Positions 12,335 through 48,305 of a DNA stretch of 64,000 nucleotides are shown one piece after another (the first letter of the stretch is position 1; every line of letters starts with the position of its first letter). The notes under the pieces are model-generated. The model had not been told where the DNA came from and did no database searches. It saw only the letters and a program-made list of their open reading frames with translations. Position numbers and translations under genes: made by a program. The DNA is taken from the NCBI RefSeq assembly GCF_018977255.1, contig NW_024704742.1, positions 38,628,001-38,692,000 of the forward strand, in the 5' to 3' direction. Origin of the DNA: Callorhinchus milii. Lineage: Eukaryota.

Positions 12335-15300
12335 GTGAGCGAGGGAGCGGGCAGTGGGGGCGGGAGGGAGGGGCGGGAGGGAGGGGGGCGGCCACACACC
12401 CACCTGTTTAACGAGTGACTGCGAGCCCGGCCGGGCCTGAAGCCCCCCCACCCCCCCGCCCGGCCCGGGGGGTCGCGGTGCACCCGGATGGCGGGCGCTG
12501 CCATGTCCTTGAGAGCCCTGTCTGCACTTGCGCCGTCTCTGCGCTTTCGCTCACCGCAGCCCTGTCGTGGTGTCGGGGGCCGCGGGGGAGCCTCGGGGTA
12601 GTGCTGCCGGTCCTCGCGGAGGTTGTGGAGGCAGTCGCATTGTCCAAACTTCGTGGAGGGAATAAGAGGCGTTCACTGCGTTTTCCCCGCGCGCTCGGTT
12701 TTCAGGATTGAGTTTTTTTTTAAAAAAAAGAAACCCGGGATTTTTTTTGTATGTCTGTGTGTGTGTGTGTGTGTGTCAGAAGGTTTTCGTTGCCATTGAA
12801 AGATGCCGCCAAAAGGCGGTCGGTATTCATTTGTGTGTGCGATGCGCCGGATGCGAAAGTGGACAGAGAGGCGCAGTGAAGCCAGTGGCGGGAGCAGAGC
12901 GGGGGAGGGGGGGGGGGGGGAATGGAGTTAGAGATGTTACCGTCTTGAGTTAATACTATTGCGATTGGATTTTTGCACGTCCCAGTGTTCAAGTAAAATG
13001 CCGCGATTATGTGCATTTGGGGGTTAAAACCTTTTTTTTTTTTTTTGCCCGCGTTAGCGCAGTGCTTTCTTTTGCAACGAGTTGCTCCTTTGCCACCAGC
13101 AAGTGTGAAAGGCAGTAAAATGGCGTTTAGTGTTTCCATTATATGCACAGCGTTGTTCTCGGCGGTGCCTTCTCTGTGAGCCGTGCACTGCTACCCGGGG
13201 GCTGCCTGGTTATGGGAAATGGTGTCTCAGGTCTCTCGCAAACTTAACTCAAAGTCAAAAGCGAGAGTCCGATTGGGTTTTTGGGGGTCGGGTCATCATA
13301 AAACGATCCCTTGTTGAATACCTTTGAATTTTGTATTCTTGTTAAACGCCTCGTCTTTTTAATTCCCTCATAGCTTTTTGTGGTTTCGCTCGGTGCAGGA
13401 AGCGACTTCAGTACTGTTGTGTATAATGCTGGCATCTTGTATTGTGGGTTTTCAAAATAATTTTACTGCACGCTGCCTGCCCTTCTTTTCATTGCTGAAG
13501 ATAATTGCATCAGTTCTGCAAAATATTTAAAGAAAATGGGTGCACCCGCCGATTGTGAAGTGCATAGAAATTTTCAATATTGTACCTTATGTGTGCATAG
13601 TTTTTTTAAGGTGCAAGCTGCGTGGCATGTATTTGTGCTCTTTAAATGAAATTGACTGCTCAAATTGGACTAATACTCTGTATGTGGACTGAGACTCCTT
13701 CTACAGTGTAGTCATTGGGATTCGATCATGCCTCCATGACCGTCCTGTGCTACTTTATTCTGAGACTACTCATTTGAAAAATTACTAAGAGCACCCATTT
13801 CCTGTGGTTGTGAAATGATGGGAATTGTGTATGCAATGAAAATGTTATGGAGAAATTGGATTCGGTGCTGTTTTGAGTGGCCGAGGCCTTGGAAATTGTA
13901 TTATGTGATGTGTAGAATTTTCAACTTTGAGTCCAGTTTTCTGGCTTAGTATACTTGGGAAATGCAGGGTTGCTTGTGTAGAACTGGTGGAGCTGAATGT
14001 TCCTGTTTTGACCTTGTTTTGTCTTTTCCCCCCAACACAAACCTCTGATGGAACAGTTGAGCTAATTTCAATAAAATGGTTTACATAATCACAACTATTG
14101 TTCCTGTCTAGGCTAAATGCAGTTTCTAAGGTCCTTTTGGCCAGATTTTTGTTCTCTGTGGATTTGTCGGTGGTGTGTGTATCCAAATTTGAATTAAACA
14201 TTAAATTAAACGAAATACATCGGGTGCATAACATTACTGATTTACAATGAAATGTACACATATAGTGCCTTTGATGTCAGAAAGATTCCTCAAAGCGTTC
14301 TACGAAGCTGGGTGGGACCTGTGTGGCAGGGAAAATTTGATCAAAAGTCTGGTCAGAGGTATGTTTCAACTTGAAAGCAGCAGCCCTGATCTAAATCATC
14401 TTTTTTCTGCCCTTTTAGTAGTTTAAAGTGATTTACATTTTGAAGCTAAATGTAAAACTAAATTACTTCCAATAATTTTTAGATACTTCATTAAAATAAA
14501 CCATTTTATTGTGATGTTTTAGATTGAAGCTGGTCTTTCCTGTGTGGGGCAGGGGATGTGTTTTGGGATAATATTAGTCAGAATTAATAGTCAATCATTT
14601 CACTTTTGGTGTTTTGATGTGTTAATGGGTGGTGCTGTATTAAAGCACTATTCAACAATGGCACAGCAATAGAGTTAGATATATCAATGTAACTTGTCAG
14701 TTGGTGTGTATATTAGTGATTAAATCCAGGACTTAAATCCAGGACTCTACTTGGCTCCTGCAATGTGTTCTGCGGTGCTCTTTTTTTCATACAACACTGC
14801 AAGGCTTTTTATATTTAAAAAAAATGGTTCACAGGCTGTACATCAGAAGAACAATCTAACCAATTAAATGCTTTAAATAAACTCTTGATGCTGCATCTGT
14901 TAAATTTAAATCACAATGTATAAAGAATAGCCTTCCACTTGTCCATAAAACTGTTTTTGCTTGCATTCCTGATACTTGAATGCTTGGGGTGGGAAAGATC
15001 TGGTTACTGAATGAGGCCGATTTAACTTTTGATTTGGCTATTGATTTATACTTCACTGTTTCTGCAGAAAAATGTTTGTGGGTGGCCTCAGCTGGGATAC
15101 CACAAAGAAAGATCTGAAGGACTATTTCTCTAAATATGGAGAGGTAGTAGATTGCACATTAAAGTTGGATCCCATTACAGGGCGCTCAAGAGGATTTGGA
15201 TTCGTCCTGTTTAAAGAGGCTGAAAGTGTTGATAAGGTATTTGATCATAAAACCTTGGGTACGAAGCTGGATTCAGAAGAATGGTTTGATAAAACCATAT

Positions 15301-17798
15301 TTGTGTGCCAGTTTACTGAAGTGATGTTGAATTTTTTTAATTTCTTAATTTTATTCAGGTAATGGAAATGAAGGAACATAAGTTAAATGGCAAGGTAATT
15401 GATCCTAAAAGAGCAAAGGCAATGAAAAGGGAGCCAATAAAGAAGATATTTGTGGGAGGCCTTTCACCAGATACGGCTGAGGAGAAGATCAGGGAATACT
15501 TTGGAGCTTTTGGAGAAGTATGTACACAATATGCATGCCTTAAACTGTTAATTTCTTAATCACATCAAACTGTGTTAATGCTGTTTCTAGCAGTCTCTTT
15601 TGGCACTGCATTGAGTAAATGAAGCAATTTTTGAGTGCCCTGTTTGCTATAATCTTCTAAATGACGGTAGCTGCTCAGTATTGTAGTGGTGTATTAATTT
15701 GAAACTGCATTTGTAGCCGTGTACAGCATTCTTCCTGGTTGTAAAACATCAATCCTGGTTAATCTGAAGGCTTCGCCCAATACTTTCACTTATTGAGACT
15801 GTCCAGTGCCCAAGAGGGTTAATGAAATGAAGATCTAGAAGCCAGTATATCAAAGTTTAGCAGACATTTGTCAACTTTACACATTTAACCCTGTGTAATT
15901 GAACTAGAAATTCTAACAAAGTTATTTTGATCCTTTGATGACTTTCAGTGTAAAGGTGGACAATTAATGCTACCTCGTGTGTTTCTTGTGATGGAACAAA
16001 GCTAATTTTGGGGAAAGTAGGCATTGAAGCGTGGAAAATAAGACCACTTTTATAAATTGCCCCCTTTAGGTTGAATCAATAGAACTTCCTATGGATAACA
16101 AGACAAATAAAAGGCGAGGATTCTGTTTCATAACCTTCAAAGAGGAGGAGCCGGTGAAAAAGATTCTGGAAAAGAAGTTCCATAATGTTGGACTCAGCAA
16201 AGTATGTTGTACCATATTGATCATTGCTTGTGTGTTTTTAATTTCAATCCATAATCTGAAGATGATTGAGTGGGGTTTTGGCTTTAGGGTGGGTTTCTGT
16301 GTAGTGCTCACGTCGGTGTGCTGATATAAGATATGCAAGTTGTCCCAGTTTAGCACTTGTATTAAGACCTCAGTTTTGCTTAAGAGGAAGTATGTTTGCA
16401 GCAAGCATTTAAATGCATTCCATTTCCTTGTGCATTGCTCCTAATGTGGGGGGGGGCACACTAGATTTTTAAAATAAATTTAATGCAGTTAAAATGTTTA
16501 CAACCCAGCCCTTTTTAACCAAGGTATAATTGTGCAACCCTGTGCTGGAATGCTTTTTAATCTGTTTTATCATTGAGAAGCTCTATGGTGTGAGCCTTTA
16601 CTGGGATATCCGTTTATGGCATATTGACATTTGTAATAAATGGTGACTTCCAATCGTAGATTTTACTTTAACTTTTTAGTTCTATTCTGATTAACTGTTG
16701 TGAAACTGGACTAATAGATATTTTTTTTTGCCAGTGTGAGATCAAGGTGGCAATGTCAAAGGAGGTCTATCAGCAGCAGCAGTGGGGGGGAAGCAGAGGT
16801 GGCTACACTGGCCGGGGTCGTGGAAGAGGAGGAGCTGGAGGCAGTGCAGGAGGTATGTATATTTTGCATTTAGATTGATTTAGGTTGCGAATGGGTTTGT
16901 TCTTGTATGGTTCTAACTCCTTTTTGCACAAATTTCAGCCCCAAGCCAGAACTGGAACCAAGGATACAATAACTACTGGAATCAAGGCTATGGGAGCTAT
17001 AACTATGGTTATAACAGCCAGGGGTATGGAGGTTATGGTGGCTATGATTACCCAGCTTATAATAACTACTATGGATATGGTGATTATGGCAGTAAGTGTA
17101 CTCTAAATATTCATACAGAATGCATGTGCTAATCTTTAAACTAAAAATGCCATTCCATATTTGAATGCTGAATCTGCAGACTCAGAAATGTGGAATGACT
17201 TGCAAAAGCTGAACTAAGTGCATGTTTGATCTTGTTCTGCTGCATCCTCCCTGCCTTTTCCCCTGCCATGTTGCTTTTTTCTGCCAGAAGGATGGGACAA
17301 TCTGGGGTTGGCGGTTATAATCCGCTGATAAGGATGTGTGCTCCTGTGGGATGGAACTCGCCCTGCTAGTTCCTGCTGTGGCCTTTACCCCCATATTTGG
17401 AGGGAGTGTTCTATATCTGAACAGTGATCCCACCTAGTGGCCTGTGTGAGAACTGGCAAAGATAACCCATTAAAGGCAGACATGAACAGGCTTGAAATCA
17501 AGACAAGGTTGAGGTTCACAACCCATGCTGCAGCTCTTTTATATTTGGAAGTTAATCCCAGTTAGTCAAATTTCAAATGATCTTAAAACCTGCGTAGGGT
17601 GGAAGTTGGATACATGTTGGGTTTTTTTCACATCCAAACAATTTTTCCAGCTACAATGTGAATTCAGTTTTGGTGCATGTGAAATGGATGATTGAGCATC
17701 TTGTGTAAATGCTAAAAAAAAATGTTACAGATCAACAGAGTGGTTATGGAAAAGCACCACGTCGTGGAAGTCACCAGAATAGCTACAAACCATACTAA
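12027..17798 (+). CDS. HNRNPD: hnRNP D0 / AUF1, join(12027-12334,15068-15236,15359-15517,16070-16201,16735-16852,16939-17091,17731-17798), 368 aa
   Basis: Two RRMs ([38 protein letters not shown]), Gln/RGG and Tyr/Gly-rich region, C-terminus [22 protein letters not shown] and N-terminal [14 protein letters not shown] match HNRNPD rather than HNRNPDL/AB. All junctions GT-AG; frame continuous (1107 nt). Confidence 0.95.
15068..15236 (+). CDS. HNRNPD: HNRNPD exon, RRM1 first part (169 nt)
   Basis: ttctgcag|A AAA ATG TTT.. to ..GAT AAG|gtattt. Confidence 0.96.
15359..15517 (+). CDS. HNRNPD: HNRNPD exon, RRM1 end / RRM2 start (159 nt)
   Basis: ttattcag|GTA ATG GAA.. [25 protein letters not shown]|gtatgt. 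Confidence 0.96.
16070..16201 (+). CDS. HNRNPD: HNRNPD exon, RRM2 (132 nt)
   Basis: cctttag|[27 protein letters not shown]|gtatgt. Confidence 0.96.
16735..16852 (+). CDS. HNRNPD: HNRNPD exon, Gln/RGG region (118 nt)
   Basis: ttttgccag|[33 protein letters not shown]..|gtatgt. Confidence 0.94.
16939..17091 (+). CDS. HNRNPD: HNRNPD Tyr/Gly-rich exon (153 nt; equivalent of mammalian alternative exon 7)
   Basis: tttcag|[42 protein letters not shown]|gtaagt; length divisible by 3, phase 1-1. Confidence 0.93.
17731..17798 (+). CDS. HNRNPD: HNRNPD last coding exon (PY-NLS); exon continues to donor after 17827
   Basis: ttacag|[25 protein letters not shown]; donor CAG|gtatgt 29 nt after the stop. 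Confidence 0.95.
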
Positions 17799-22663: not shown

Positions 22664-22813
22664 GTTGAACTATTAAAATTTGCTTTTTAAGGGATAGCAT
22701 CAATACATTGCAGAAAAGCTGCATTATGTACAAGAAAGGTAAGAAGCTGGTCCATTGAAACAAAATGGAGGTTGAGGGAAGAGCAGGTGGGCAGTTGGGG
22801 GGTAGGTGTGCTC

Positions 22814-22957
22814 CTAGGTTGGAATGACCCCGGTAGCAAAGAGAATGATGAGGGTGATGACTATAGCTGTAATCACTAGGATGATGACCATCATTTTTGT
22901 GTTTTTCCACCACATCTTCCTTGCTATCTTGGTGGATGTTTTCTGAAATGAGTCAGC
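22814..22957 (-). CDS. VAMP8-like exon 3 (juxtamembrane WWKN + TM)
   Basis: ctatctgtttgcag|[50 protein letters not shown]. Confidence 0.92.
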
Positions 22958-25900
22958 CTGCAAACAGATAGGATAGGGATCAGAGTGAGTGGCAACAGCA
23001 TAAACCCACCTCCCTGAAACACATGAGCAGGCAACACCCAATGGTATGAGCAGTGAGGTATGGAAAGCCTCCCTCCTGGTCTTTGTCTCCCTCCCCACCC
23101 TTCATCACAGCTCTGGACCATTTCCCAAGTAAGGGAAAATCCTCCAAATTCCACCTACTAGACCATAAAAGTATTTTTTTCTTAAACATTTAAGGGTTCT
23201 TGCACACAATCAGTAGATTGTTTAATGCAGCCTTAATTTGGAAGCTAATTCTTTTTAACAACCACAGAAAAGATCTTCCAAATTATGACTGGATTTTAAG
23301 AATTTTCCACAATTCTGCGTGGATTAAAGTTTTAAGACAAAATGGTCTTGTGCCTCCATTGATCCCATTCTGCATGTGTGTGAAGATGGGTCAGGTGTGA
23401 CTGATGCCTTTCAGTCTCTGAATGAGGTACACATGAAACCCCAAGTATACAACTATACCCCCAGTAGAACGACAAGAGTCAAAATGCGTTCAGGAAGAGG
23501 AAAGGAAATGATTGGAAAAGGACATTTGGCAGAGAGTGCAAAACAATCTTTGTTAGTGACCCACAAAGGTCTTTCTTACCACAATGACCTACAAATGGAC
23601 AACTGCAGCATCTCACTGTGCCCATGTTCATTCAGTTTATTCACATGTTACAATTCCTGAGAAACTATTTTCTCCAGTTATAATGGAAGCAATTAAAAGA
23701 ACTTGAAACAATGTTGAGAAAATAAAACAATAGTGACAAATCTACTGAAGGAAATGGTACCTCAAAACAGGTATCTTCATGAAGTCTAAACTGGGTTGTG
23801 CTAACAGCCCACAGGCTAGCTACATTCAAACACAACAAAAATGATTACAAGTGATCCTATAACCTGTATTGAATCATTATATATTAAAAATCACCTGTGA
23901 ATATTTGAACATGATTAGCCCATGTGCTCATACCCCAATCTGTATTTTAGACCCCAAATGACCCAATTGCTGTCTTCTAACATATCCTTCCAGCAATTTT
24001 TAAAAATAAAAATGTTTTGTTGCATTGCACAAAAGCTCTGCCTGATCCCTGACTCTTTCATCTCTAACCTCTTGCAAGTAGCAGCCTCATTTCATTCTCT
24101 ATTTTACTGATGCGGACAAATGCAAAATTATACATTTTGGGAGGAAGAATAAGCATATGTTGTTTGGTAAAGTATTAAAAGGAGTGGAAGAGGAAAGGGA
24201 CTCGGCAGGAATTAATTTGCATAAATCCTTAAAGATGGGAAGGCAGGTGGACAAAGCTGTCAAAAAGCAAATGGAATCTTAGGTTTTATAAATAGGGGTA
24301 TAGAATATAAAAGCAAACAGGTAAAGCTAAACTTATATAAATTGTTAGTTAGAATATTGTGTCCAGTATTGGTCACACCACTTTAGAAAAGATATCAAGG
24401 GGTGCAGTGGACATTTTACAGGGATAAGTGGTTTGGCCAATGAATGGAGGAACTGGGACTTTTTCCGCTGGAACAAAAGTTGAATGGTGATCTGATTGAG
24501 GCCTTTAAAATTATGAGGGCTTTAGATAGAGTCAGTGGGGAGAAATTATTTCACTGGAAATGAGTCAGAAAATAGAGGGCATCAATTTAATATAGGTAGT
24601 AAACAAGAAAATGGGGAGGATAGTTGAAAGTTTTTCACACAGAGTAGCCAAGATATGGCATTCTCGGCTGGGAGCGGTGTTTGAGGCAAAAACTATATTG
24701 GCCTTCAAGAGGGAACTAGACAAGATACCTTAAAAAGAGACAACTACAGGTGTGCGCAGAAATGGCAGGTAAATGGGTTTGAAAAGATTCTGTGCTATAA
24801 ATTTCTATGGTTTTATGATACTCCCATAGACATTACCCCTCTGAAACCCTCCTTCCTTGTTCCTGCTAAGCTCCAGAATGGCAGCCAGGCTAGGCTTCCT
24901 CTTTGTAGTATTATTGTAGAAATCAAAGTAAACAAAGTGTTTCCTCCGTAAACTCATTCTTCTCCAAGATCTCAGGACTGTGGATCTCCTCTCTTTGCTT
25001 TGTCTTCCCTCCTGCAATCTGCAAGCTTTCAAGATTCGGACTTCTTCACAATTTATCTCATCTACTGTTCTGTTTAACTTTCTACCCTGTACTATGTGCC
25101 TTGGCCTGGCATCTAGCTTACTCAATAAAAGGTACAACAGAAATAGCATTGCTCTTTTTGCAGTCTGGTGTCCAATACGGAGATCCTGCCAATGTTACAC
25201 ATTGTAAAGGAAACAGCCAAGGTAAACAAAACTGACAGGAAACATTTTTCAGAGAATGAGTCTCCTCTCTCCCGACATCGTCACTTTCTTTCTCATACTG
25301 TATCACTCACTCTCTCTACACACACTCTCAGTCCACCATTTCCCCACTCTGCTTGTTTCTCGAATGTTTTCTGTCTCCCGCTCTCACGGGACTTGCATTT
25401 CCTCTTTGCTCAGTCAACATCCTGAAAGTCCCCCTCCTTGCCTCATTGTTCAATGATCCCCATCCGCTATGTAGATGATGCCTGAATACGCAGACAAAAC
25501 CTTGATTTAATATCTTATCCGAAGGCTGAAGTAAGTTCTTACTCATAAAGATATGGTTTGACGTTTTTGACTGGGACCAAGGTTATCTGTGACTGGAGAT
25601 TCCAGTGTCAATATCATACTCAGTTAACACAGTAACATAATGGGAAGTGCTCACATGGAATCATTAAGATTTGGTTACTAATATGAATTGCAAAATGATT
25701 TGAATATCTATTTGAAGTTGTTTAGAATAAGGACAACTGATGTGAGAGTAGAAGGATTCACCCTAGTGCAGTAGAGAGTGGCCTAAGAATTTACTTTATT
25801 AGGACAGAGTAAAGAAAGCTTTACCCTCTGGCCATTAGGAGAGCAATGACAGAAGGTTCAGCACAGAAAGAAGCTGTTTAATTCATCATGACTATGATGT

Positions 25901-28900
25901 CAGCTCCCCTTCTTTTAGCTGCTCAAATCCCATTGCCTTGCTGTTATTCCAGATCCTCTATTATCTTCATTCTATAAGTTTTATATCTAGTTTCCTGCTA
26001 AATGTTGTAATTGACTTATCTTCAGGTACATTGACGTGGTTGTAAAACTAGGTGAACATATTTCTAAAAATACATGTAAGTGAGAGTCACACAACCTCCT
26101 CTAATGTTCCTATCAATAAACTCAATTAAGTTAGTTAGAAGCGACCTACCTTTTAAAAACCACACTGGCTGTCCCTGATCAGTTCATACTTACCCAACTG
26201 CTCAGTTACTCTGTCCCTGGTGATGGATTCTAGTCATTTTCTCACTACTGATGTTAAACTCACCGGACCATATTTACTTTCTATTTGTCCCTTCCTCCCT
26301 TCTTGATTATTGGGTGACAATCTTCCTGTATTACTCTTGAATCCAGAGAGCTTTGAAAGAAGGGACAAACCAAGTAACTACAGTATCTCAGCATATTTGA
26401 ACCCCTGACTCTCTGCTCTGTATGGCTCAGTTGGTTTATTTGCCCACTACACCCACTGAAAAGCGATCAGTTTTTTTAAAAAAATGATTGTTACATAATA
26501 TTATGTAAGGGCAGTGGTTTGGAATCAGGACTTCAAGGAACAAGGCTACTTCCATCGTCCGTTGTTTTAATGAAAATACGTTCTGTAATTAGGTAAGCAG
26601 GATGCATCCCTCCAGGGAGAGAGTGTGCATTCCATTCCACCAATCTACCTCTGGAATGTGAGGTGGGATCCATGGAATTCTCAGTTTGGTTTGGATCCCC
26701 TTAAGTATGGTGATGGATGTCCACATGTGTCAGACCCCCCCAAAAAAAATTAATGAGAAACTCGAATGAAGGGGAAATACTCACAGAGCAGGACACCAAC
26801 CAAGATTGGAAACAAAGAGGAGAGGAGATTAGACAAAATAAAGAAATATTTGTTCGATGATTTCCACCTTGGGCTTAAGAAGTTTGCAGATGGTAGGAGG
26901 AAGGGAATAGTGAGGGAATCATAGAATCATCGAATTGCAACACACACGGAAGCCATTCAGACCATTGTGCTTGTTCCAACTTAGTCACTGAAGCTAACTC
27001 CTCCAATCCTAGTCCTCTGCTCTTTCCCTGTACACATTTACATTTTTTCTCTCTTCATTTATTCAATCCCTTTTTGAATGTTCTGGTTTCGAAGACTGAG
27101 GGAAGTGAGAGGTTTGGTTCGATATTTAAAGTTATCAAGGGATATTTTTGTTAGGACACCTCCACAGTCAAATCGCAGTGTGCCTGAAACTTGCGGATTT
27201 AATGATTGAGGCAAAAGTATATTTTACAACAAGTTCAATCTGCCACTCTAATAAACTCTTGGCCTGGGTCACAACAGTCAGGCGTTGAATGGAGGCTGGG
27301 ACTTCCTACAGGCAGGAGACAGAAGAGAAGTGTGGTGTCAGCTGCTGTCATACACATGCTAATCGCAGAATCAGGCTGTGAATGACACGCTCTTTGACAG
27401 AAACACCAACAACAACAGATGAAGAATTGGTCTTAAGGCAATTTTGAAGGTGCAGAGGGAAGGGAGAATGGTGGAGGGATACTGGAATGGAATTCCAGAG
27501 AACTGGAGCAGAGTGGCTGAAAGCTTGCCCAATGATGGTTGGGTGGAGCGGGCAGGGAATGTGAAGCATGTTTGCTGAACAAATGCAGCAGCCAGGGCTG
27601 TCGGGTCGCAGGAAGTCACAGGAGCTCAAGCTCCAATGTGAGGCTGGAACTCACAACCTTCTGACCCAGAGGAGAGAGTGCTGGCAACTGAGCCAAGTCG
27701 ACAGCTGATATGACATTGATATCTAATTTCCATAATCAAGTGTTACTGCACACAGAACAGGGTTAGAGCAACCAATTAGAGCGGCACTGCCAAGCTCAGG
27801 AGTGTAACATTGCTGAAACAGGATGAAAAAACATTCAGGATAAAGATAATCTTGAGATGCTACGCTCTGCTAATTTTGTAGCCACCATTCCTGCGGGAAA
27901 TGTAATTGTTTAAAACACTACTAATGGTAGAAAGGGAATTTCCAAACAATTGGCTGTAAAGAACATTTTTTTTTTAAAAAAGGAAACTGCAAATCCTATG
28001 TCAATGGGATTGCAGTTTCCCAACGGCAATAATTATTTTTAAAAACTAATTAGGTGAAAGCAATGCAATATTTTTTTTTCTTTGAAAACAAATGACCTTG
28101 GTTACAAAATAGTTTACAGCTACGCCAACATACCTGAAAGCCACGTCAATTACAACATTTAACAGGGAGTTAGACAAAATCAGTTGAAGAATGAAGATGT
28201 GAAATGCTATGGGGAAGGAACAGGGGAATGGGACTAGAGTGGATAGTTCCAGTGGGAAAGATTGCACCAGCACATGCACTATAAATTAATGGCCATCTCT
28301 GTGGTGAAATGGCTAAGATTTCCCAGTGGGTAAAGCTACTTCTTAGTACAGCACTAAGCCATTTAGTGAGGAGCAATTCCACCTGGGGCTAACATTACTC
28401 TTATTTATGTAGTATTAGAGCATTCAAGAGTTTGGCAAATTGTCAAATTCAGTCTTAACTTTGAAATTTGTCTTCTGTAGGCTCTTATAACAACTTATGA
28501 GTATCAGCAGCAGCTGGCCTTGTGACCATGGCAGGAGGTAGTCAGACCCAATCCTGAGCCACCCTGTATCATGTACATGTCCTGCAAAGGAACTGGATTG
28601 CAGTAGGAAAGTGCTGCTCTCATTTTTCTCCAGTCTAAAGGTGCTGAGGCCAGTTGAAGTGACACTTTGACCAATATCAGACAATTCAGCACAGACTGGA
28701 TAAAACCTGTAGATTCCTGCCTGGTTGACTTGACTGAATTCCACTCAATTCCAGGGGTATTGAGATGAAAGTCTTTTTTCTGTTTGCTATCAAATTGGAC
28801 CATCTCAATCCAAGGTGTCTACGCAGCAAAAGATGCTGAACATTCAGCACAAATCAAGCAATCTAATGGAAATGTTACATTGTACAATAAGGGGTGCGCT

Positions 28901-31900
28901 GTGCCTGAACTGGGAGACTGTATAACTGTGCTGTGTCTAAACTATGATTGATGCACTGGGCAGACTGAGATGGATGTTCTTGAAATGTTCCACCAGCTAA
29001 TACCATTAGACAGCATTTATATTCAAGTATATACACAAACATATTTAAACATGCAACTAACTAACTGTGTGCACACATCTATGGCGCTGGTACAGCACTC
29101 ACAGAACACACATAAAACCAAATTATTGTATTCATAAAAAGGAGTGGGAAACCAGAAAACATCCCCAACACTCTGAGGCTTTGGTCACACTCAGGACACC
29201 CATGAACACACACACACACACACACACATACTAGGCAGGCAGATAGTTTTGAAGACTTCACTAAAACAGATGAGCTGTTGAAAAGCATCTCCTCACCGTT
29301 GCCTGGAGATCATCAGTTTTGACGATCAGGTCATCCAGCTTCTCGCCTCTTTCCAAAACTTTGTCAATGTTTTGTCTCATGATGCCGCTGACATCATCGA
29401 CTTGATCCTGCAGATCGGACAACTTGTCTGGGTTTGGATCCACAACATAACTCGCCTGCCAAGAAAGGAATCACTTTCAGTGCAGTTGTGAAAGGCTCAG
29501 TCAAATTATTACAAAAATAAACTAAAAGTTAACTTAAAAATCATCCCTAAGTCCAGAAACCTGATTGATGGATATGTTCAAGTCAATGTGTTTCCAGAGT
29601 GGAATTCTCTCGAGTCTAAGTGATTTGGCTGATTCACTTCCAGTAACCTGAAGGTTAATAATAATAATAATCCTTGCATTTGATACAGCGCCTTATCACG
29701 TTTGGAAACATCTCAAATAATAATCCCTCCAAAACCAAAAACAATAATAAATTGGTCATTTTCAATCTACGACTGTTTGTGGGACATTGCTGTGCACAAT
29801 TGGCTGCCGCGTTCACCCACAAATATACAGTCAATTCACTTTACAGTGTGTTCTGTGAAGCGCTTTGGGACGTCCTCCCGACGTGAAAAGCGCTATATCA
29901 AATGCAAGGATTGTTATTATTATAAAACGCTCAAAGAATATATTGTAAAATGGAGTGACTGTGTGTTTTGTGGGCGAAATGCAATTTCCCCATTCGTAAC
30001 TCAAAATATTTATAATAACAATACAAAATATTTATTAAGGAATGCCAGTTTACTTCAAGCTTCACGTCCCCTGTGAACGAGTCGGATCTGCAGTTTAGAT
30101 CCAATGTATTAAAATTCCTCCTTGGCCACTCTCCCTGTGGCTCTGCAGGTAAACACAACAACTTACATCTAGTATCTTTTATCTAGTAGTAAGTAAGAAC
30201 TCACTTGTTAGTCGATTGGCGGATCGCTTTCCGGGGATAATAATCCCTTCAAAATAATTATAGTTTGGTCACTCAATCCACGACTGTTTGTGGGACGCTG
30301 CCGCATTTCGCCCACAAATATACAGTCAATTCACTTTACAGCATATTCTGTGAAGCGCTTTGAGATGTCGAGAAGACGTGAAAAGCGTTATATCAAATAC
30401 AACGATTATTATTATTATTATTATTACATTTGTATAGTGTTCTTTATGTAGAATAAGGGCAGGGACGAGAGCCATGGAAGAGGTGACCAAAGGCATGACC
30501 AAAGTAGTTTTTAAGCTGGCACTTAAAGACAGAGAGGGGATGAGACAGGGAGTCGAGGGGGTGAGTTTCAGAGGTTAGGGGCGTAGAAACAGAAAGTTCA
30601 GCCTCTGTTGGTAGGGCGGATATGCCACCTGGTGGGATACAAACCAGTAAAGATCCCAGCTTTGATGCCCAGTCCATGCTGAGTTAGCTGATCTCAGGCA
30701 GGGCTGCCATTATTAATCCTTACATTTGATATAGCACGGTTTAAGTTGTCATGACATCTCCAAGAGCTTCACAGGATTAACTGTAAGTAGATTGTGAGAT
30801 GTGTATTTTGGGTATACGTTAAACCTGTGTATGAGACTTTAAACCAACGGGACCTCGGTTTAATGTCTCATCTGAAGGAGGTACCTCCAACAATGCAACA
30901 CCCCCCAGCACTGCATTGCAGTGACATCTTAATTGTGATTTCAAGTCCCAATGTGGGGCTTGAACCCACAACCCTCTGACTCACAGCAAGTGTGCTACCA
31001 CTATGCCAGGCTGACACACAAGAGGGTCACTAGTATTGGGTTCAAGACTCCTGGTTCATTAAGATGAGAAAAAAATCAACCAGAGCTCCAGCTCTTTCTC
31101 CCTCTCCTGAGACCCCTGCTGGAAACAGTGTGGATATGCATTCTGAGTGAGGAGAGGATAATAATAATAATAATCCTTGCATTTGATATAGCGCTTTTCA
31201 CGTCGGGAGGACGTCCCAAAGTGCTTCACAGAACACACTGTAAAGTGAATTGACTGTATATTTGTGGGCGAACGCGGCAGCCAATTGCGCACAGCAATGT
31301 CCCACAAACAGTTGTAGATCGAAAATGGCCAATTTATTATTGTTTTTGGTTTTGGAGGGATTATTATTAGGCTCTGTGTGGAGTAAGGAAACTTGCCCAA
31401 GGTTTCGCCCTCTGCCTGGAATTGAACTCAGGTCTCTCGCTTGCAAAGCGAGTGCTCTAACCACTGAGCTACAGGACTCCAAAGGATGAGGCTTGGCGAC
31501 ATTGTGCCCTCACTATCTGGGTTCACACATAAAGGTCACTTGGTTGAGGTATGGGAGGGTGTCCGATGAAGATGGAACAATAAGGTGGTGTTTTCAGGAA
31601 AGGAGGAGTCAGCCTGCACAGGCTACAGATCATCCAGAACTTTGCAGACCGTGTCCTCTCCCACACCAGGCTCTGCGACCCTATCACCCCCATCCTCACC
31701 CAACTCCACTGGCTTCCCATCACACAGAGGATACAGTTCAAGATCCTGGTCCTCACCTTCAAAGCCCTCCATGGTCTTGCTCCCCACTACCTGTGCAACC
31801 TCCTTACCCCCTACCATCCTGTTCAGTCCCTCCGCTCAGCGGGCTCTGGCCTGCTTCATGTCCCCACCATTGGCCACTTTGTGCCACACTGCCCCACCCT

Positions 31901-32937
31901 CTGGAGCCCCATTCCGCAGTCCCTCCACCTCGCCCCCTCCCTCTCCACTTTCAAGACCCGTCTCAAGACCCTCCTCTTCAACCGTGCTTTCGATCTTCCC
32001 GCTTCCCCCCATGCCCTCCACCCTCACGCACTCTGACCCCCAGCTCGGGCCCGTAACTCTGTCTGTCAAGTGCCTTGGGACTTCCTCCCGACGTGAAAGG
32101 CGCTATACAAATGTCATTTTGTTGTTGCTGTTGTGAGGAGGGGAATCCTTATCCGAGTGTCTTTGAGTATATGCAGCATTGAAATGACAATGGAACAAAT
32201 AACAATTTGACATGTGAAGAATCAGCAGGGTTCAGTGGCTTATATACAGGGTGACCAAAAAGTCGTGATACCATTACAATGTCTAATAAATCTTAAAGAA
32301 ATGATAATTTTTTTTAGATAATAGGGAAGCTGAAAAATAGGCCTTTTTGGTCCAAATTACAAAAGCAAACAAAGCTTTGAGGAGGCGCTGTCTGTGCCAG
32401 GGAGGAAATAAACAGCCGAACATCACTTTGTCTCTCATGTGAATCATGCAAAGACAAGTTGCCACAAGGTAGAGCTGCCTTAGTCAGGCCTTTGCCAGAG
32501 TTTGCTTGTTTTTCACCTTTTTCCCAAAGACTTTCCAATAAAGACCAGCAGTGCCCCCTGTAAACTGTTCACAGTTTCACAAACAAGATCGACAAACAGA
32601 GGTAAACAACATGCCACGTCAGGAGAATTAAAACACCAAAACAAAGCTAAACACTGTAATTTCTTACTTCAGGCTACAGTATTCTTACTCGTGTTTCTAT
32701 CTAATCTGTTAACCTCTCATTTATTAAGTAAAATCAGGATCCTATGTCGAATTGTCATGGCAATTATTCTCTAACAAAGCTGGTGACTCAGTCTCTCCCC
32801 GGACTGAGGTTTCTCTCTAGAGCAACACGCTTACCTTATACACACCCTCCATTGAAAGTCGATATTTTATTCTACTCAATGGCAGCCGCTTTGTCAAACA
32901 AACGCGTCTGCCTTCCGATAATGTGCAAACTTACCAT
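22814..32937 (-). CDS. VAMP8-like R-SNARE, complement(join(22814-22957,29297-29455,32935-32937)), 101 aa
   Basis: SNARE motif [61 protein letters not shown] with zero-layer Arg, then a C-terminal TM ending [12 protein letters not shown]-only exon 1, 159-nt exon 2 and phase-0 junctions resemble VAMP8. Confidence 0.88.
24110..24780 (+). mobile_element. CR1 LINE 3' fragment
   Basis: [22 protein letters not shown] and FFTQR-like motifs, degraded. Confidence 0.8.
29297..29455 (-). CDS. VAMP8-like exon 2 (SNARE coil, 159 nt)
   Basis: ttcctttcttggcag|[22 protein letters not shown]|gtgagg. Confidence 0.92.
29717..29922 (+). mobile_element. 5'-truncated young SINE nested in an older antisense SINE
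   Basis: Flanked by minus-strand SINE tail (29656-29716) and body (29925-29985). Confidence 0.85.
30180..30426 (+). mobile_element. SINE (long variant, 5'-truncated)
   Basis: Colinear with family; (TTA)n tail. Confidence 0.85.
30710..31020 (-). mobile_element. Old Deu-domain SINE (SacSINE/AmnSINE-like); related copies ~1650-2060, 6960-7285, 36445-36830, 45955-46195
   Basis: GGACCTCGGTTTAATGTCTCATCTGAAGGA..CCTCCAACAATGCA core and tRNA head GGGGCTTGAACCCACAACC. Confidence 0.7.
31159..31480 (-). mobile_element. Young full-length tRNA-SINE
   Basis: Near-identical to the 10572-10897 copy. Confidence 0.92.
31590..32133 (+). mobile_element. L2 LINE 3' fragment
   Basis: Same family; ends TTTTGTTGTTGCTGTTG. 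Confidence 0.88.

Positions 32938-42197: not shown

Positions 42198-48305
<6,108 letters not shown>

Follow-up and report, generated by a model that had tools for sequence, protein, structure and literature searches.

Lists of vertebrate R-SNAREs usually end at VAMP1-5, VAMP7, VAMP8, SEC22 and YKT6. The described proteins closest to the one reported here are VAMP8 (endobrevin), VAMP5 (myobrevin) and VAMP7 (TI-VAMP). We analysed a stretch of 64,000 nucleotides from the 992-Mb assembly of Callorhinchus milii (G000:C1:38628001-38692000, hereafter the window), which contains an R-SNARE gene between an hnRNP D-type gene and OSTC. UniProt names the protein of this gene after zebrafish si:ch73-234b20.5, a member of the same family. 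We use W type, or W, as a working label for the paralog group of the window gene, to which this zebrafish-derived name belongs. Similar to VAMP8, the window protein is a short brevin encoded by three coding exons with an identical intron position in the SNARE motif, and it has the layer-0 arginine, the WWKN motif and a predicted tail anchor with a similar end; the two types are sister clades in the best tree. Unlike VAMP8, W lies on another chromosome among other neighbours and has no adjoining VAMP5. The diagnostic residues also differ across the whole coil, and the W stem is much shorter in the tree. By manual count, W is about equally similar to VAMP2 and to VAMP8 (33/64 vs 33/65 identical positions). 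VAMP5 has the same brevin form and intron position and adjoins VAMP8 in the paralogous block, but its branch in the tree is very long and distant from W, it has no WW motif, and a long tail follows its anchor. VAMP7 belongs to the same larger group as W and has the same intron position, whereas no longin exon was found in the window, the C-terminal end of VAMP7 is unlike that of W, and VAMP7 is on another contig (C15). We consider it likely that the window gene encodes an intact, tail-anchored short R-SNARE of a paralog group that is sister to VAMP8, and that the two groups split before the ancestor of jawed vertebrates, most likely through the early whole-genome duplications.

A scripted splice of the three coding exons (Table 1) gave a reading frame of 306 nucleotides for 101 amino acids, and all splice dinucleotides were GT/AG. 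The product was identical to P0004, which is UniProt A0A4W3HMR9_CALMI (Callorhinchus milii, 'Si:ch73-234b20.5'). The three-exon, 101-residue R-SNARE that had been read from the letters of the window in a preliminary description was thus verified on the minus strand, coordinates included. A methionine directly before the exon-2 residues is also found in annotated shark, ray and coelacanth orthologs. Exon 2 encodes the N-terminal tail and the SNARE motif as far as the +4 layer, including the zero-layer arginine R37, while exon 3 completes the motif and adds the juxtamembrane WWKN sequence and the membrane anchor at the C-terminus. The two exons scored separately in a genome-wide Synaptobrevin profile search (E 5.3e-11 for exon 2 and 2.7e-9 for exon 3).

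The window protein matched the Pfam family Synaptobrevin (PF00957) with an E value of 3.6e-34 and 116.9 bits (cut-off 26.4), covering profile positions 3-88 of 89. Its alignment to VAMP2 was gapless over 83 residues, membrane anchor included, and that to VAMP8 was gapless over 65. In these gapless alignments, R37 stands opposite the LER-motif arginine of the VAMP2 and VAMP8 chains. We take this position to be layer 0, and the numbering of the core layers is likewise our assumption; when the VAMP2 alignment was read by eye, 16/16 core layers fitted, layer 0 being arginine and all other layers being small or hydrophobic. Among 16 aligned W and VAMP8 proteins, R37 was nearly invariant, and V20, V23, N30, L41, L51 and F58 were invariant. 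At the C-terminus, about 22 hydrophobic residues follow WWKNTK and align with the transmembrane stretch of VAMP2 in 3hd7, and the protein is predicted to have a single C-terminal tail anchor. Only 10 residues precede the SNARE motif. A tblastn search of the window with 12 longer relatives showed no longin exon, and a longin profile made from 14 longin parts found none there either, its best match being on the other strand (E 0.056). The window protein is a brevin, that is, a short R-SNARE without a longin domain.

The R-SNARE inventory of C. milii was taken from a whole-genome Synaptobrevin profile search. It contained the two W exons, VAMP1-3-type loci on C11, C41 and C24, VAMP4 on C5, VAMP7 on C15, and YKT6 and SEC22-type exons. 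In addition to the window gene, there is a pair of Synaptobrevin genes 6 kb apart on contig C28. The SNARE exon of the first is 98% identical to P0094, a C. milii protein called 'VAMP8-like' in UniProt. Against the human VAMP8 chain 7bv6_A, this C28 product scored 107.2 bits, while the window protein scored 69.2 bits. The second gene is VAMP5-like in look, having no WW motif and a long tail past the anchor. In the window and its surroundings the two W exons were the only Synaptobrevin matches, the VAMP5-like gene being on C28 instead, and the window protein is 55% identical to the canonical VAMP8 of C. milii. Since a separate VAMP8-VAMP5 pair, whose VAMP8 is closer to human VAMP8, is present on C28, the window gene is not the VAMP8 ortholog, and it is not in the VAMP8 orthology group. 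The preliminary description had proposed a second VAMP8-subfamily gene rather than a moved VAMP8, and had named a separate VAMP8 beside VAMP5 as the gene to look for. The pair on C28 bears this out, and the human VAMP8 coil given there agrees with the PDB sequence of VAMP8.

To see how far W extends beyond C. milii, P0004 was used as a query on candidates from an exact-word search, and 90 of the 94 candidates matched at E ≤ 0.001. These matches came from chimaera, sharks, rays, lungfish, coelacanth, bichir, paddlefish, gar, bowfin and many teleosts, and from six sauropsids (two crocodilians, three turtles and Anolis). Identity to P0004 was 81% in catshark, 73% in lungfish, 69% in gar and 60% in turtle. 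None of the 90 matches was from a mammal, bird or amphibian, which does not imply loss in birds or amphibians. A query with the C28 exon matched 70 of 99 candidates, and these were without exception of the canonical VAMP8 type. Both types were found in ten species: Callorhinchus, Scyliorhinus canicula, Mustelus asterias, Protopterus, Latimeria, Erpetoichthys, Chanos, Pelodiscus, Gasterosteus and Pseudoliparis. In several species, for example Scyliorhinus, Latimeria, Erpetoichthys, Mustelus and Chanos, W and VAMP8 lie on contigs of different size, as for genes on different chromosomes. An exhaustive search of cluster representatives gave 6700 matches at E ≤ 0.001, and the best 150 of these were examined. 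In the canonical clade the representatives bore the names of rodent, turtle, frog, bird and teleost VAMP8, and the nearest outgroup representatives those of VAMP7-type proteins of bryozoan, horseshoe crab, rotifer and snail.

The naming of these proteins is mixed. The NCBI name VAMP8 alternates between the W type and the canonical type by species, and W-type proteins appear in databases as 'VAMP8', 'VAMP8-like' and 'si:ch73-234b20.5'. No description of the W paralog was found in literature searches (supplementary tables were outside their scope), and the zebrafish gene name 'ch73-234b20.5' had no match in full-text literature. The gene is already predicted in databases, under confusing names, and its family is without a name or study of its own.

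The relation of W to other R-SNAREs was examined with two kinds of trees. FastTree was run on the 284 domain-trimmed rows, out of 301, that covered at least 70 profile positions. The W clade had 94 leaves (support 85) and the VAMP8 clade 71 leaves (support 97); together they formed a group of 167 leaves, including 2 extras, with support 89. More careful trees were built from 26 rows of W, 21 of VAMP8 and 20 representatives, together with shark VAMP1-3, VAMP4, VAMP5 and VAMP7, whose exons were spliced from genomic sequence; IQ-TREE was run under a site-mixture model on 71 rows and 101 columns. The supports were 100/99 for VAMP8, 51/23 for W, 92/92 for W with VAMP8, and 98/88 for W, VAMP8 and the VAMP7-type proteins together. 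VAMP4, VAMP1-3 (synaptobrevins) and VAMP5 were outside this last group. The VAMP8 clade, which has rodent, bird, frog and turtle members, excluded 26/26 W rows. VAMP8 is on a long stem (0.6 changes per column), and the W subclades are on short stems. Gene structure gave further characters: an intron position in the motif is common to W, VAMP8, VAMP5 and VAMP7, whereas VAMP1-3 encode that stretch in one exon, and W and VAMP8 each have three coding exons with a very short first one (1 and 7 residues, respectively). In the best tree of the R-SNARE phylogeny that the preliminary description had suggested, W and VAMP8 are sister clades and W is outside VAMP8. Sequence alone favours W as the sister of VAMP8 and leaves this unproven. 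Cartilaginous and bony fishes are present in both clades, and therefore the split between W and VAMP8 is older than the divergence of these two groups.

Human 2p (the VAMP8 side) and 4q21 (the HNRNPD side) share duplicated families. Four marker families were chosen beforehand from this human 2p/4q paralogy and were searched in the shark genome. Ant_C, of the anthrax-receptor family, occurred at three loci in all (C28:3.30 Mb, C1:35.52 Mb and C7:6.87 Mb). ELMO_CED12 (ELMOD) was on five contigs, at C28:3.94 Mb and C1:30.04 Mb and also on C4, C2 and C18. Frag1 (TMEM150/DRAM) had exons on three contigs: C28:4.419 Mb (10 kb beyond VAMP5), C1:38.590 Mb (the window gene being 61 kb away) and C7:7.58 Mb. 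C28 is only 4.6 Mb long, and its SNARE, Ant_C, ELMO_CED12 and Frag1 members are within 1.1 Mb; the C1 members are within 30.0-38.7 Mb. None of Ant_C, ELMO_CED12 and Frag1 had a match on C15, the home of VAMP7. The preliminary description had placed the origin of the second member in a whole-genome duplication, and three further duplicated families common to both blocks are as expected of ohnologs. W and VAMP8 are most likely an ohnolog pair from the early vertebrate genome duplications.

A third block was seen on C7 (6.87-7.58 Mb), with Ant_C and a Frag1 gene, whose Frag1 exon is 55% identical to that of C28, and with no Synaptobrevin match. We regard it as a possible paralogous region from which the SNARE gene has been lost.

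The proposed history has to be weighed against other explanations. Many W-type proteins carry the NCBI name 'vesicle-associated membrane protein 8', and read support for the window gene in C. milii is thin, so one might take it as the true VAMP8 ortholog relocated beside hnRNP D, or as an unexpressed pseudogene. However, the gene beside VAMP5 on C28 is far closer to mammalian VAMP8, and the VAMP8 clade with its rodent, bird, frog and turtle members leaves W out with nearly full support. The reading frame in the window is intact and 60-81% identical to orthologs in other species, and the splits between C. milii and species with W orthologs are more than 400 million years old. This explanation is highly improbable. 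Another one makes W an offshoot or ohnolog of VAMP7 and not of VAMP8, in which case the short brevin form arose twice. In an approximately unbiased (AU) test, a tree that groups W with the VAMP7-type proteins and leaves VAMP8 outside was not rejected (p 0.185, log-likelihood difference 5.0), and the W proteins of two marsupials and two salmonids have a partial Longin domain. Moreover, invertebrate VAMP7 proteins scored higher against the SNARE domain of W than against that of VAMP8 (for example, 98 vs 76 bits for P0215 and 96 vs 66 bits for P0217), although these scores may merely mirror the slower change of W. On the other side, both the best IQ-TREE tree and FastTree join W with VAMP8, the two are alike in the three-coding-exon layout, the short N-terminus and the type of C-terminal end, and the marker families pair C1 with C28 and leave out the contig of VAMP7. 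We regard an origin of W from VAMP7 as unlikely. It is also conceivable that a small local duplication took place before the divergence of jawed vertebrates and one copy moved later, the shared neighbours being a coincidence or a segmental copy. VAMP8 and VAMP5 are themselves in tandem, which indicates that local duplication does happen in this family. Nevertheless, four families each have one member in the short C28 interval and one in the C1 interval, and the C7 block holds two of them, Ant_C and Frag1, again. A local origin therefore seems improbable.

Several points weigh against a sister relation of W and VAMP8 that arose by genome duplication. W as a single clade was weakly supported, with 29/23 in another tree, and the branch joining it to VAMP8 is below the star threshold of the tool. 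The alignment had 101 columns only, and the careful trees used a selection of rows (26 of about 94 for W and 21 of about 71 for VAMP8). The AU result given above counts on the same side. The marker set comprised four families only, and one of them, TCF/LEF, was on C1 (6.19 Mb) and had no match on C28. The Frag1 exon on C1 is under the Pfam cut-off (28.2 vs 30.3 bits), its best match within the genome is on C5 and not on C28, and it is a candidate TMEM150C by position. Assignment of the Frag1 exons to TMEM150A or TMEM150C had no PDB match, and within-genome BLAST was indecisive. No cyclostome (lamprey or hagfish) or amphioxus sequence was identified. In addition, the exon-exon joints of the SNARE gene were not directly displayed by C. 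milii reads. On balance, the window gene is real, intact and conserved, and most likely a sister paralog and an ohnolog of VAMP8; it is widely kept in jawed vertebrates and divergent in mammals.

The preliminary description had called the gene kept here and lost in mammals. This did not stand as worded: W is widely kept, and divergent members were found in two marsupials and one primate. The search of cluster representatives gave P0261 and P0305 from wombat and Tasmanian devil, W-type proteins of 180 residues called 'VAMP7', and P0269 from the monkey Rhinopithecus bieti, a divergent W-type protein of 98 residues. These three rows group with reptile W proteins (97/95), and the AU test rejects placing them with VAMP8 (p 0.0165; the group was defined after the tree was seen). 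They carry residues of amniote W, for example DRTD in the coil and, following the central arginine, REE where others have RGE. The marsupial proteins retain the central-layer arginine. In the monkey protein the central layer has a lysine, one residue is deleted, and a proline stands close to the last core layers; this protein is the single member of its 90%-identity cluster, and an ESM Atlas search with it returned generic synaptobrevin clusters only. These features suggest that W is decaying, or at least under very relaxed constraint, in primates.

The partial Longin domain directly precedes the SNARE exon in the marsupial proteins P0261 and P0305 and in the salmonid proteins P0166 (Salvelinus) and P0058 (Oncorhynchus). 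It scored 26.6-30.6 bits (Pfam cut-off 26.2) over profile positions about 12-56 of 84, with the same end point in both groups. The longin parts of W are 30-35% identical to the longin of shark VAMP7, and the marsupial parts, as putative orthologs of the salmonid ones, are only 30-32% identical to them. Since they are distant from the longin of shark VAMP7, they were not borrowed from the VAMP7 gene. A passage of PMC6143360 states that, in earlier phylogenies, endobrevin descended from a VAMP7-like SNARE whose N-terminal fold was lost. The W lineage may retain a trace of this longin-to-brevin step, which we offer as a lead and not as a result. More tentatively still, W might be an ancestor-like copy of endobrevin that catches this change, with a longin remnant in marsupials and salmonids, the short form only in sharks and most fishes, and a decaying core in primates; we hold this version to be doubtful.

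NCBI also predicts an isoform X2 (P0003) of 97 residues for the window gene, with another first exon and a terminal exon without the membrane anchor. When P0003, P0234 and P0259 were compared, the tails of the isoforms without the anchor were unrelated between shark species, and they were therefore not treated as a conserved soluble form. To judge from these tails, the anchor-less terminal exon of isoform X2 is probably not functional.

Read data were taken from four of the 14 listed runs, which are only guessed to be RNA. A contig of run X2 that covers 22669-22958 at a depth of 584 ends at the acceptor of exon 3, while the flanking intron contigs have a depth of about 8; the exon-2 bin had a depth of 42.9. 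The exon-1 bin was without cover in these runs, and no inference was drawn from this. The joint table was swamped by the high-copy repeats of intron 1, and it displayed no exon-exon joint. These very high-copy repeats lie at 29540-32250 and reach a summed contig depth of up to about 695,000 in the runs. Intron 2 has a (TG)n microsatellite at 29200-29245, about 50 nucleotides downstream of the exon-2 donor on the minus strand, and reads were cut there, at 29197-29242. In other species, 14 of the 90 W-type matches were without a name, most of them from Logan assemblies, with whole frames on contigs of about 0.9-4 kb. These short contigs look like spliced transcripts, their RNA status not being stated.

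The window was scanned with Pfam on stop-free open reading frames (ORFs), and OSTC was identified by a PDB match and short motifs. The first RRM of the hnRNP D-type neighbour scored 123 bits against hnRNP D0, 111 against A/B and 99 against D-like when compared with single domains in the PDB. The OSTC neighbour matched PDB 6s7o_H at 131 bits, and no Pfam family was found for the OSTC protein P0309. As the preliminary description had noted, the SNARE gene is convergent with HNRNPD, whose RRM exons are on the plus strand, and divergent from OSTC, also on the plus strand. The SNARE gene and OSTC are head-to-head, with start codons about 9.3 kb apart.

Other features of the window were observed in passing. 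Clusters of A-to-G differences on the plus strand at 24385-24708, four of them consecutive at 24688-24691, were present in contigs of runs X1 and X6. They resemble A-to-I editing of a plus-strand transcript downstream of hnRNP D; alternatively, they may be allelic variation. Eight scattered tRNA-like Rfam matches are in the window (3903, 10827, 31412, 35531, 38623, 41818, 45286 and 54273), one of which is in intron 1 of the SNARE gene at 31412-31474 on the minus strand. These matches and the repeats of intron 1 look like copies of a tRNA-derived short interspersed element (SINE). Just after OSTC exon 1, at 42392-43709, there are two adjoining GC-rich minisatellites with 27-bp units (32 and 28 copies, 88-91% matches), and owing to these arrays all six reading frames are open over about 1.6 kb. 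An open frame of 331 amino acids with a YADD motif of the reverse-transcriptase kind lies in an OSTC intron at 43995-44990 on the plus strand, and it is probably a fragment of a long interspersed element (LINE).

Table 1. Coordinates of the SNARE gene, its neighbours in the window, and the canonical VAMP8-VAMP5 pair (window numbering unless a contig is given)
Feature	Position	Strand	Basis or remark
Coding exon 1, ATG only	32935..32937	-	Donor GTAAGT next; start checked by splicing
Exon 2, 159 nt, 53 aa	29297..29455	-	AG before, GT after
Exon 3, coding part, 47 aa and TAG stop	22814..22957	-	Splice and Synaptobrevin match
Alternative first coding exon, 6 aa, isoform X2 (P0003)	32835..32852	-	Scripted location; donor GTAAGC
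Alternative terminal exon, isoform X2, no membrane anchor	26237..26350	-	Scripted location
hnRNP D-type RRM exons	15045..16321	+	Pfam RRM_1 in ORFs 15045-15359, 15341-15556 and 16070-16321
OSTC	42198..47368	+	Exon 1 from ~42198, exons ~45746-45841 and ~47171-47368; borders approximate
Canonical VAMP8 exons	C28:4401667-4402517		Synaptobrevin profile
VAMP5-like gene	C28:4408366-4409069		6 kb downstream of canonical VAMP8

From what is known of the family, the 101-residue protein would insert into a membrane through its C-terminal anchor. Its single helix would join three Q-SNARE helices in a four-helix SNARE bundle, contribute the arginine layer and so drive membrane fusion. Similar to VAMP8 and VAMP7, it would likely act in endosomal, lysosomal or granule traffic; partners and compartment are here put forward by analogy with the family. 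In the history that we prefer, an early vertebrate whole-genome duplication would have put W and VAMP8 into two paralogous chromosome blocks, and the two lineages would have been separate before the last common ancestor of jawed vertebrates. The C1 block would have kept W with hnRNP D, OSTC and a TMEM150-type gene, and the C28 block VAMP8 with VAMP5 and a TMEM150-type gene. W would be the slowly changing copy, with VAMP8 on the long stem.

The W gene is a further well-conserved member of the R-SNARE family in most jawed vertebrates. Because databases list it under its sister's name, work on 'vamp8' can mix both genes, be it in orthology tables, fish knock-out designs or expression studies. Since zebrafish has a copy, the role of W can be tested directly, and so can the extent to which it overlaps with VAMP8 and VAMP7 in lysosome, autophagosome or granule fusion. 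As a probable ohnolog, W moreover illustrates clearly how a widely kept gene can be divergent or decaying in mammals. If the tentative reading of W as an ancestor-like endobrevin is true, vertebrates would have begun with two endobrevins, and fishes and reptiles would use a never-studied endolysosomal or granule R-SNARE that placental mammals do without.

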